Positions 1 to 10,495 of a DNA stretch of 10,495 nucleotides are shown here, piece by piece (within the stretch, counting starts at the first letter, position 1; each line of letters starts with the position of its first letter). Origin of the DNA: a virus (Duplodnaviria > Heunggongvirae > Uroviricota > Caudoviricetes); IMG/VR virus record IMGVR_UViG_2693429700_000005; one strand, 5' to 3'. The position numbers were made by a program, and so were the translations under genes. The notes under the pieces were generated by a model. That model saw nothing but the letters and a program-made list of their open reading frames with translations, had not been told where the DNA came from and made no database searches.

Positions 1-124
1 GGGAAGGCTGGGCCATACTCCTCCGGCAGAAGCAGAAAAAGCTTATTATGCTTCCATCGGAAACGATGATCTGGCAGCCTGAGTTCACAGATAAAACACT
101 CTCCAGGAAACCCGGGGCGGTTCA
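1..124 (+). mobile_element. Partial IS3-family insertion sequence (IS629-like), 3' end with terminal inverted repeat; element body extends left of the window
   Basis: Positions 111-124 (cccggggcggttca) are the reverse complement of the TGAACCGCCCCGGG terminus at 10321. Positions 2-82 encode a transposase C-terminus (...LGRLGHTPPAEAEKAYYASIGNDDLAA, stop 80-82) resembling IS3-family OrfB ends. Family name is from memory, not searched. Confidence 0.65.
2..82 (+). CDS. IS3-family transposase OrfB, C-terminal fragment (5' end outside window)
   Basis: In-frame translation to TGA at 80-82; near-identical (one nucleotide, N vs K) to the minus-strand fragment at the right edge. Confidence 0.6.
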   Translation, partial: GRLGHTPPAEAEKAYYASIGNDDLAA

Positions 125-195
125 TCTTGGTTCCACAAATCTCATTACACAAATATTGATTTTGATATTTTGGTATAAACCATTCATTGCAACAT

Positions 196-762
196 TTACA
201 TTTCCTTCGATAGATTCGCATAAGTGCTCCTTTCGTTGCCGGAAAAATCACCGTAATACTTATCTCGGGCTTCTTCAGCAACTAGTACCGCTAACTCCAG
301 ATCATCAAAGCATCCGAAGTGTTTACTCTTTCCATGGAATCCTAGCCTAACATTCCATTTTTTCTGTCGTTTGTGCCAAGTAACCCCTCTGCAACCTGAT
401 TTGCTATTCTTTCGGATCCTTATATTTCTTGAATTTTCTATTGGCAGGCATTCTCTTAAATTTTCTGGCCTATTGTCGGTCCTAATTCCATTAACGTGGT
501 CAATTTGACCAGCAGGCCAACGATTATGAGTTATGTAAAAAACTAAGACGTGAGTTTTATATCTACGCCCATCTATCATGATCATTGAATAACCGTTGGA
601 ATCAAAAGTTCCAGCAACACTATTTAATGCTATCCTTCCCTGAGTGGGAACTTTCCATCTAAATACCCCGGTAGATTTATCGAAACTTAGTAACTCAAAT
701 ATCCTTTTAACAGTTAAATCTTCTCTTTTACGGTTACATCGTCTTCGCGCTGGTTTAGCCAT
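196..762 (-). CDS. HNH endonuclease with C-terminal AP2-type DNA-binding domain (phage homing-endonuclease-like)
   Basis: HNH-like motif DHVNGIRTDNRPENLREC and AP2/ERF-like segment GVTWHKRQKKWNVRLGFHGKSKHFGCFDDLELAVLVAEEARDKYYGDF. Start taken at the internal ATG (762) preceded by GGAGGAAG rather than the ORF-track start at 843. Confidence 0.65.
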   Translation of the reverse strand: MAKPARRRCNRKREDLTVKRIFELLSFDKSTGVFRWKVPTQGRIALNSVAGTFDSNGYSMIMIDGRRYKTHVLVFYITHNRWPAGQIDHVNGIRTDNRPENLRECLPIENSRNIRIRKNSKSGCRGVTWHKRQKKWNVRLGFHGKSKHFGCFDDLELAVLVAEEARDKYYGDFSGNERSTYANLSKEM

Positions 763-956
763 CGCCTTCTTCCTCCGTAATGGTTTTCTGAATTTGGCCA
801 CCTGAACAGAGCTCACCAAAGCTATGGATGTCGGTATTTCCACAATACCAAGATGGCGAAAATAACTGCATGATAAGCCTCAGGGAAAAGGGAAGACACT
901 ACCCCCGATAATTCAGAAACAAATCGAAATACATGAACTAAAGAAAAAATCACAAC

Positions 957-1014
957 AAATAGAAATAGAAATAGAAATAGAAATAGAAATAGAAATAGAA
1001 ATAGAAATAGAAAT
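957..1014. repeat. Hexanucleotide microsatellite (AAATAG) x9 plus a partial unit
   Basis: Nine perfect tandem AAATAG units at 957-1010 plus AAAT, in the divergent intergenic region between the HNH gene and the 590-aa ORF. Confidence 0.95.
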
Positions 1015-1201
1015 ATTAAAACAGACCACCACATTCCTGATGTCATACTCACTAAACAATTTTTCGACAACATGGTAGCTCATAGCACGTTATCGTGTAG
1101 ACACCCTCTGCTACGTATTCGGTGTTCAGTGCAATATCTACAAATACTGGAAAAATCTAAAATCGAGGCAAGTTTTTAGTGATAACTATAGTTAGACTAT
1201 A

Positions 1202-1231
1202 TTGACGACCTGATGTGCTGTATGTAATAAT
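1202..1231 (+). promoter_or_regulatory. Candidate sigma70 promoter for the 590-aa ORF
   Basis: TTGACG (1202-1207), about 18-bp spacer, TGtAATAAT extended -10-like element (1223-1231), roughly 100 bp upstream of the start. Pattern match only. Confidence 0.3.
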
Positions 1232-1330
1232 TAAAAAAAATATTTTCCATGGGATTTTTTATTTTAATGAAATGCAAAATATTTTTATCAATAGTTAGTA
1301 TTATGGAAAACCATTAATTCAGGAGGAAAC

Positions 1331-9097: not shown

Positions 9098-9138
9098 CTC
9101 TTTAACATTGATGGGATTGTCCCGCCGAAATGCGGGAA
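9098..9138 (+). promoter_or_regulatory. nutL site (boxA and boxB)
   Basis: boxA-like GCTCTTTAACA (9098-9108) then the hairpin TCCCGCCGAAATGCGGGAA (9120-9138), identical to the nutR boxB. Confidence 0.7.
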
Positions 9139-9244
9139 CCAAAGAGTAGTTGGCTTTGGGGTGACGTGAAGTGCAGCTGCACGACGGCAACCGGAAGATA
9201 AGCACCCGGCGCGTCACCGCCAAAGTCAATCATCGGAGGTCAAC

Positions 9245-9517
9245 ATGACAGTAGTCATTACATATCTGGCTGACGATAACGCCAGAAATCGCCGCAGAGC
9301 ACGCAGACAGGCTCAACGTGAACAGGCAATGCAAGAGCAGCGACTGGCGCGAAAAATTGCGCTAAAGCTCTCTGGTTGCGTCAGAGCAGATAAAGCAGCA
9401 TCACTCGGAAGCCTTCGCTGCAAGAAGGCAGAAGAATGCAGTGGAAGTATTTGCCTGCCAAACGTAGCCATTTACTCGGCAGGCTACCGGAAATCAAAAC
9501 AACTGACGGCGAGATGA
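9245..9517 (+). CDS. N: Antitermination protein N (P22 gp24-like) with arginine-rich motif
   Basis: ATG at 9245 after GGAGG. N-terminal arginine-rich motif NARNRRRARRQAQREQ; C-terminus ...YSAGYRKSKQLTAR resembles P22 gp24 as recalled. Located downstream of pL and nutL. Confidence 0.7.
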   Translation: MTVVITYLADDNARNRRRARRQAQREQAMQEQRLARKIALKLSGCVRADKAASLGSLRCKKAEECSGSICLPNVAIYSAGYRKSKQLTAR

Positions 9518-9533
9518 TAAATTCATTTGCTAA

Positions 9534-10115
9534 TTACTTGTTTTTGCCATGCTTATCCTGAGCGATAAGTTCATCCATAAGGCTGTCTTTCTTCCCAGCA
9601 AACCTAATGTAGCACTCATTTCTATAGCGTTCAGGGATAACAAAACGGTCGATTTCAGGATATCCAGTAGCAGAAGGTATCCGAATAAGAAGCCCTTTTT
9701 CGAGCAATGAGATTGCTTCATGGCTTCCCTTTTCTGTCTTTAGCTGGTTATTCGCGGCTACAGCGAATGCCAAATACGCTCTTTCTCCAAGAGTTAACGA
9801 ATCAAACAAATCTTGCACATATTTTTCTTCTTTAGATTTGCGCTTCTGAGCAGCGGATACCTCAATTCTTTCAGTCACAGCGTGATAAGCGGAATTAACA
9901 ACACCGTTAAGCACATAGCTAACGCAGAACAACAGGATGTAATACATCCAATAATGAGGAAGGATTTCTGGATTATGCAGGTTTATCCATTCTTTTACGC
10001 TTACCGGCATAACAATAATCAATATGATCAGGATGATTAGCATATGAATCAACTGTTTAAGTGTCATTCCTTGCAGGAAAAAATGCATTAGTTCCTGCCA
10101 CCATGAGTTGTTCAT
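9534..10115 (-). CDS. sieB: Putative superinfection exclusion protein B (SieB-like membrane protein)
   Basis: 193 aa with hydrophobic N-terminal helices and a charged C-terminal half; convergent with N as sieB is in lambda and P22. Assignment is by context and composition, not a verified alignment. An alternative start at 10088 has a better RBS. Confidence 0.45.
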   Translation of the reverse strand: MNNSWWQELMHFFLQGMTLKQLIHMLIILIILIIVMPVSVKEWINLHNPEILPHYWMYYILLFCVSYVLNGVVNSAYHAVTERIEVSAAQKRKSKEEKYVQDLFDSLTLGERAYLAFAVAANNQLKTEKGSHEAISLLEKGLLIRIPSATGYPEIDRFVIPERYRNECYIRFAGKKDSLMDELIAQDKHGKNK

Positions 10116-10258
10116 CGGCGTTTCTCTTTTGCTCTCTGTAGGGGTGAATAGAGTTTATCCGATTTCTCGCTGTAGGGGTACACGAGAACCACCGAGCCTG
10201 ATGTGGTTAAAAGACAGGCACAATCTTTACTACCGCAATCCACTATTTAAGGTGATAT

Positions 10259-10320
10259 ATGGAAGAACAAGCAAACAAGATTCTCGTAGAACTACTGCAA
10301 AAAGCCAGTAATGGAATAGA
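10259..10320 (+). pseudogene. 5' fragment of a gene truncated by the IS insertion
   Basis: ATG at 10259 after AAGGTG; reads MEEQANKILVELLQKASNGI then runs directly into the IS terminus at 10321. Confidence 0.35.
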
Positions 10321-10495
10321 TGAACCGCCCCGGGTTTCCTGGAGAGTGTTTTATCTGTGAACTCAGGCTGCCAGATCATCTTTTCCGATGGAAGCATAAT
10401 AAGCTTTTTCTGCTTCTGCCGGAGGAGTATGGCCCAGCCTTCCCAGCAATCGTCGATTGTTATACCAGTCCACCCACGTTAGTGTGGCCAGTTCC
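10321..10495 (-). mobile_element. Partial IS3-family insertion sequence (IS629-like), inverted relative to the left copy; body extends right of the window
   Basis: Terminus TGAACCGCCCCGGGTTTCCTGGAGAG at 10321; 10321-10445 is the reverse complement of 1-124 with a single mismatch. Confidence 0.65.
10363..10495 (-). CDS. IS3-family transposase OrfB, C-terminal fragment (5' end outside window)
   Basis: Minus-strand translation ...ELATLTWVDWYNNRRLLGRLGHTPPAEAEKAYYASIGKDDLAA with stop at 10363-10365. Confidence 0.6.
   Translation of the reverse strand, partial: ELATLTWVDWYNNRRLLGRLGHTPPAEAEKAYYASIGKDDLAA

Follow-up and report, generated by a model that had tools for sequence, protein, structure and literature searches.

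Do inverted copies of one insertion sequence (IS) around a block of phage genes mark a composite transposon, or do they record separate events in a resident prophage? This question is raised by IMG/VR record IMGVR_UViG_2693429700_000005, a 10,495-nt stretch of Caudoviricetes DNA (hereafter, the window) that carries an end of the IS3-family element IS629/IS1203 at each edge. We favor, with a probability of about 0.7, the explanation that two IS629/IS1203 copies inserted separately into a resident lambdoid prophage of Escherichia coli, that one of the insertions was followed by deletion of neighboring DNA, and that the window represents no mobile composite transposon.

Inverted IS629/IS1203 ends at the edges of a draft contig

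The window contains a single long inverted repeat, with arms at 1–127 and 10318–10444 (127 nt, 1 mismatch); every other inverted repeat found in the repeat search measured 29 nt or less, which places the terminal repeat far above chance. By sequence reading, the element tip lies at 124 on the left (..GGGGCGGTTCA; ...CCCGGGGCGGTTCA) and at 10321 on the right (TGAACCGCCCC..; TGAACCGCCCCGGG...). Positions 1–124 match, at 100% identity, the 3′ end of 1,310-bp copies whose annotation reads "IS3-like element IS1203 family transposase", and positions 10321–10495 match the 3′ end of annotated 1,310-bp IS1203 family copies at 174 of 175 nt; the 5′-TG...CA-3′ tip is present at both ends. Reverse-strand translation of 10363–10494 yields the transposase C-terminus ELATLTWVDWYNNRRLLGRLGHTPPAEAEKAYYASIGKDDLAA, where the annotated copy has ...ASIGNDDLAA; together with the terminal identity, this identifies both ends as right inverted repeat (IRR) ends that face inward. 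The contig includes only the last 26 (left) and 43 (right) transposase codons, which agree with the annotated C-terminus; the match of the short transposase fragment to Pfam rve_3 fell under the cut-off. The right copy runs on to the end of the window, and with 124 and 175 nt of IS sequence in the contig, complete copies would be expected at both ends.

The two terminal copies differ only at window position 64 versus 10381. While the left copy has the G variant, which is the common one (read as C on the + strand at window 64), the right copy has a rare T variant at 10381, which replaces N with K six residues from the transposase C-terminus (...ASIGNDDLAA* to ...ASIGKDDLAA*). The preliminary description of this DNA, which reported one IS3-family terminus at both edges, with inward IRRs and a one-nucleotide difference, is thus borne out by the 127-nt repeat and its 64/10381 mismatch. 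The triplets that abut the tips, TCT (125–127) and AGA (10318–10320), are complementary and lengthen the 124-nt inverted repeat to 127 nt; each is native phage sequence outside the IS, as read in two relatives (L001 and L005). Their complementarity is either a 1-in-64 coincidence or an unexplained preference in target or deletion endpoint.

Contig CYAS01000102.1 of draft assembly GCA_001283645.1 measures 10,495 nt, and the window comprises all of it. The edges of the window are thus points at which the assembly broke within a multi-copy IS, with no outer flank in the record, and the bracketing seen at the edges largely reflects the points at which the assembler stopped. The window and at least five related contigs terminate 27–175 nt inside this same multi-copy IS. 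The left end of the window coincides to the base with the end of the independently assembled contig CYFR01000100.1, and other contigs of the same prophage lineage (L006, L012, and L013) end in the same IS at other positions. As a whole contig that ends inside a multi-copy IS, the window resembles other repeat-terminated short-read contigs, but it differs from them in that its junctions are exact IS tips with distinguishable IS variants; the junctions are real biology and no artifact. A single collapsed IS copy as the source of both ends was ruled out by the inverted orientation and by the different variants at the two ends.

Probable separate histories of the left and right junctions

Judged by its genes, the enclosed DNA is the early region of a lambdoid (lambda-like) E. 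coli prophage in its native, canonical gene order, from the interrupted ninG to N and sieB (Table 1). The left IS divides ninG, a gene that in L001 and L007, relatives without this IS, encodes NinG at its full length of 200 aa. Relatives that are IS-free here (L001, L007, L008, and L010–L013) are collinear with the window and have an intact ninG; L007 shows 0 mismatches over window 124–7230 (7.1 kb) and lacks the left IS, and the empty site reads ..GAGTGCTATCTTGGTTCC.. in L001 (...GAGTGCTA-TCT-TGGTTCC...). Because near-identical IS-free prophages carry the whole gene, the left IS entered ninG recently, when the prophage was already in residence. This copy would have entered at ...GCTA-TCT-TGG..., and the ninG remainder (...GAGTGCTATCT) would lie beyond it. 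The closest phage-collection record, Stx1 phage AU6Stx1 (98.6% identity over window 124–7674), has neither of the window's IS junctions; its single IS629-like end is located near the int/xis end. The comparison with relatives lacking the IS, which had been proposed beforehand as a check, thus returned collinear IS-free prophages with whole ninG and readable empty sites for the left junction (in L001) and for the position of the right IS in the sister contig L005 (in L017).

The right boundary lies elsewhere in a sister strain. Contig CYFR01000100.1 (L005; assembly GCA_001285905.1) is 100% identical to the window over positions 1–10320 and has the same left junction; beyond 10320, however, it continues for 1,124 extra bp (10321–11444) before an IRR tip in the same orientation is reached at 11445. 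The extra DNA includes the remainder of a 149-aa gene, a 96-aa gene, a 52-aa gene, and part of a 56-aa open reading frame (ORF). A second contig, L006 (run ERR178226), presented the same arrangement as L005 with 0 mismatches. The 56-aa ORF hit by the right IS of L005 lies downstream of sieB in the pL operon, and the corresponding empty site reads ..CAACCCGAT|TTTATCGG.. in L017. In the window, the 149-aa gene stops after 62 nt at the IS tip, in agreement with the earlier attribution of the truncation at this junction to the IS.

The T variant links the two right copies. The right copy of the window carries it, and so does that of L005 (L005 position 11505), while the 10 other copies of the fetched loci, including both left copies, have the G variant. 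A 31-nt probe centered on this single-nucleotide polymorphism (SNP), which seeds on T-variant copies only, matched 1 place in 5,426 complete E. coli genomes, as compared to more than 25,000 places for the generic IS end. Since this rare variant is common to both, the right copies of the window and L005 are most likely one copy, identical by descent. The lone genome match (L020; NZ_JBREQN010000004.1, 52262–52292) is on a 66-kb plasmid, pE600029_66, from a human stool isolate from Bangladesh, which hints at the epidemiological origin of the window strain and at a possible plasmid donor.

L005 and L006 retain the IS plus the 1,124 bp that are missing here, and the loss begins exactly at the IS tip. 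No microhomology was found at the deletion endpoints; such a joint, exactly at the tip, fits one made by transposase. An IS-mediated deletion, one of the outcomes that the preliminary description had envisaged, is therefore supported by a sister with 10,320 identical bp, in which the IS with this rare variant sits farther out by 1,124 bp.

These observations suggest a sequence of events in which the resident lambdoid prophage of an E. coli draft genome gained two IS629/IS1203 copies, in opposite orientation, in separate events. The right copy, with its private SNP, would first have entered the 56-aa ORF downstream of sieB, ~11.3 kb from the left copy, as in CYFR01000100.1; the window lineage would then have lost 1,124 bp directly against the IRR tip of this copy, and with them three small phage genes, leaving 62 nt of the 149-aa gene. 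The deletion may have occurred by aberrant transposase strand transfer from the IRR tip (as part of IS3-family transposition by copy-out-paste-in), possibly aided by the IS-excision enhancer (IEE), or by a local hop of the IS in the same orientation followed by recombination between the direct copies. Under a deletion, the outer right flank would be the same in both strains, reading IRL(rc)|GATTTTATCGGTACAGC... on the + strand, where IRL(rc) is the reverse complement of the left inverted repeat (IRL end sequence, TGAACCGCCCCGGAAATCCTGGAGACT); as taken from L017, this flank would be GAT-TTTATCGG....

An independent simple insertion of the right IS at 10320/10321 predicts a different outer flank (AGA-CGCGGCTG..., i.e., IRL(rc)|AGACGCGGCTGTTTC....). 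Here, nothing would have been deleted, the rest of the 149-aa gene would lie beyond the IS, and the lineage would never have had, or would have lost, the copy 1,124 bp further out. An inner junction at the exact IS tip is what any transposition leaves, the same IS has struck this lineage repeatedly (at window coordinates 3835 and 5260 and upstream of ninG), and the genome could hold a T-variant donor at another place, a plasmid being the one further carrier found. However, a very rare variant (1 of 5,426 genomes) would have had to insert twice independently, each time in one orientation and within 1.1 kb, in strains that have the left insertion in common and otherwise share 10,320 identical bp; this explanation is less parsimonious than a deletion, and we consider it unlikely.

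A functional composite transposon, in which the inverted copies and the intervening 10.2 kb move as a unit carrying the immunity, exclusion, and replication module, has the architecture in its favor (two near-identical inverted IS ends around a gene block), and compound transposons formed by copy-out-paste-in ISs do exist (bioRxiv 10.1101/2023.06.07.543989). Yet the block is in native prophage order, both junctions lie inside phage genes that are collinear with IS-free prophages, and the outer ends would both be IRL, of copies whose completeness is itself deduced from their ends. Moreover, the right boundary differs between otherwise identical sister strains, suggesting that the two boundaries arose in separate events and not as those of a single mobile unit. 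Neither window junction occurred in the 5,426 complete genomes. The best left-junction matches there (H86–H89) were other prophages, which the IS had entered independently, in ninH or ninG. In scans of three further collections, the inner-left junction was absent from GTDB species representatives and JGI metagenomes and present in IMG/VR only in the sister contig; the outer-left junction predicted for a simple insertion, CGTTCGAGTGCTATCT|TGAACCGCCCCGG, had 0 exact-pattern matches in IMG/VR, JGI metagenomes, and GTDB representatives. Neither a foreign passenger nor a recurrence of the unit, with its boundaries unchanged, at a second location was found, and the composite-transposon-like unit of the preliminary description does not hold up. 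Like Tn10, Tn5, and Tn6330, the window has two near-identical inverted IS copies around a gene block; unlike in these compound transposons, the passenger is the native neighborhood of the insertion sites, the boundaries are not conserved between sisters, there is no sign of movement as a unit, and complete copies are deduced from their ends only. We thus regard it as very improbable that the block moves as a unit, and equally so that the IS629 pair makes cI, cro, N, sieB, O, P, the origin, and a 590-aa orphan ORF a mobilizable or invertible cassette; if it did, the cassette might transpose as a "lambda-dv-like" module, or act as a switch by which the early region is uncoupled from Q and int/xis.

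Homologous recombination between the inverted copies could also have inverted the 10.2-kb early region, or could still flip it, with the outer flanks swapped. Two inverted repeats of ~1.3 kb that are 10 kb apart are a legitimate RecA substrate, and the absence of duplications around some complete copies in other genomes shows that rearrangements happen at this IS. The internal gene order is unaltered and, with a contig that ends inside the IS, gives direct evidence neither way; in each of the sister strains, the SNP still tells the two copies apart close to the IRR ends, which indicates that the IRR-proximal part has not been homogenized by gene conversion. We judge an inversion to be improbable, more so than an independent right insertion.

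Three points weigh against two separate insertions followed by a deletion. The contig ends inside the IS on both sides; target-site duplications, complete copies, and the way in which the segment is oriented within the prophage as a whole are presumptive. The deletion is derived by parsimony from the sister strain, and an independent T-variant insertion at 10320/10321 gives the same inner junction. The complementarity of the TCT and AGA inner flanks is accounted for solely as a 1-in-64 coincidence.

The enclosed prophage early region

The coordinates of the IS ends and of the genes between them are listed in Table 1. The lengths of the enclosed genes equal those of annotated homologs (cI, 216 aa; cro, 61 aa; O, 312 aa, with iterons; P, 233 aa; also ren and N), which indicates that the immunity and replication module is intact, as the preliminary description had stated. 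At the right edge, the truncated 149-aa gene reads into the IS and would encode a 33-aa peptide, MEEQANKILVELLQKASNGIDEPPRVSWRVFYL, which matched one record only, CYAS01000102.1; a look-up of a 55-aa ORF that spans a junction returned no record.

Table 1. Features of the 10,495-nt window (CYAS01000102.1), with coordinates, strand, and basis of assignment.
Feature	Coordinates	Strand	Remarks
Left IS629/IS1203 copy, IRR end	1–124	+	last 124 nt; tip ...GGGGCGGTTCA at 124
Left IS, orfB transposase C-terminal codons	2–79	+	stop codon 80–82
TCT abutting left IRR tip	125–127	.	ninG triplet; expected 3-bp target-site duplication if simple insertion
ninG 5′ fragment (Rap-like recombination endonuclease)	125–221	-	97 nt, 32 codons MRIYRRKCKCCNEWFIPKYQNQYLCNEICGTK; interrupted by left IS
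HNH endonuclease, 188 aa	196–762	-	Pfam HNH_3, 4.2e-11; annotated in relatives
Tandem repeat (AAATAG) x 9.8	957–1015	.	perfect hexanucleotide; ~315 nt upstream of orphan ORF
AT-rich orphan ORF ("cargo" gene), 590 aa	1331–3103	+	strand opposite to nin genes; phrog_9230, function unknown
nin region and ren	3607–5947	-	annotation of L001; gene/Pfam table of L005 (identical sequence and coordinates)
ninE	3607–3789	-	
Dam methyltransferase	3786–4313	-	
ninB	4310–4756	-	
Lar	4713–4949	-	
DUF7301	4960–5175	-	
phiTE_015	5308–5586	-	
ren	5657–5947	-	
Replication module	5944–7580	-	
P, 233 aa	5944–6645	-	Pfam Phage_lambda_P (L005 table)
O, 312 aa	6642–7580	-	Pfam Phage_rep_O (L005 table)
ori iterons	7130–7233		repeat search; iterons annotated in phage AU6Stx1
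Immunity region	7613–9517		
cII	7613–7906	-	
cro	8015–8200	-	
cI/LexA-family repressor	8281–8931	+	
N	9245–9517	+	
sieB, superinfection exclusion, 193 aa	9534–10115	-	Pfam SieB; phrog_1301, 5e-123
149-aa phage gene (phrog_3054), first 62 nt	10259–10320	+	truncated at right IS tip; intact at L005 10259–10708
Right IS629/IS1203 copy, IRR end	10321–10495	-	last 175 nt; tip TGAACCGCC at 10321
Right IS, transposase C-terminus	stop 10365–10363	-	

Three features of the left half of the region were observed in addition. The HNH endonuclease has, C-terminal to HNH_3, a sub-threshold AP2 DNA-binding domain (22 bits, cut-off of 33), a layout that is the architecture of phage homing-type HNH-AP2 endonucleases. 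The hexanucleotide repeat coincides with contig ends and alignment breaks in relatives (the Logan contigs L006 and L009 start within it, at window 986, and the L011 alignment breaks at 979–993); its copy number probably varies among strains, and it could represent a contingency or promoter-spacing element. The 590-aa orphan ORF has a GC content of 0.32–0.35, as compared to ~0.5 in its surroundings, and Pfam, PADLOC, and PDB sequence searches with it were all without a match. It is kept in the Stx1 phages AU6Stx1 and SH2026Stx1 as well as in many E. coli prophages, and looks like a moron of unassigned role.

Recurrent IS629/IS1203 events and erosion of lambdoid prophages

IS629 has caused many gene inactivations and genomic deletions in O157 and, with IEE, deletions adjacent to IS629 with sizes between a few nt and over 40 kb (PMC9943667); IEE-promoted IS629 events are attributed to Ooka 2009 and Kusumoto 2011, as cited in that article. 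Such deletions have been explained by a "sloppy" strand transfer, in which a cleaved IS end joins a site other than the opposite end (bioRxiv 10.1101/2023.06.07.543989). Complete copies of the IS elsewhere are flanked by 3-bp duplications (TAC, CAT, and AAC) after simple insertion, and by none where the IS borders rearranged DNA.

The same prophage has been hit at other positions. The one complete genome that encodes the identical 590-aa protein (L004; CP148401.1) has this prophage cut at window coordinate 5260 by a 1,310-bp IS629-like copy without target-site duplication. Of the two IS629-like copies there (3019–4328 and 13931–15240), the one that does not make this cut adjoins the tail gene, also without duplication; beyond the prophage cut lie genes for sugar utilization (a PfkB kinase, a glycoside hydrolase of family 32, a LacI-type regulator, and a LacY-type permease). 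The arrangement resembles the outcome of a deletion or rearrangement, mediated by the IS, of the entire immunity side, and the cut without duplication in CP148401 indicates that IS-driven erosion of this prophage is recurrent. Independent IS629-like junctions are also found inside dam (L012 5164–5338, window coordinate 3835) and ~1.45 kb upstream of the ninG junction (L013 1–132).

The window shares with known IS629/IS1203 events in lambdoid and Stx prophages of pathogenic E. coli the identical terminal sequence with TG...CA tips, insertion in prophage genes, a deletion that starts at the exact tip with the IS retained, and a lineage that is hit repeatedly. There is no difference in kind; here, the host appears to be a non-O157 draft genome, and the right copy has the rare N-to-K variant. 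The pattern is an already known phenomenon in a known element, and the window represents one further documented case of IS629/IS1203 eroding a lambdoid prophage, with ninG broken, each of the early operons cut downstream of the immunity region, and 1.1 kb beside the IS lost. Side by side, the assemblies GCA_001283645.1 and GCA_001285905.1 provide a clean natural example of the states before and after an IS-adjacent deletion, with a private SNP as the tag. The window also carries a caution, since a short-read assembler is expected to leave inverted IS ends at the two edges of a draft contig wherever it meets a multi-copy IS, and such ends should not count as a composite transposon.

For the prophage itself, the left IS would have inactivated ninG and would sit between pR/O/P and Q, while the right IS would sit between N/sieB and the distal pL genes. 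The immunity region would thus be parted by IS DNA from late-gene activation and from recombination and excision functions, an arrangement that would tend to lock the prophage in place.

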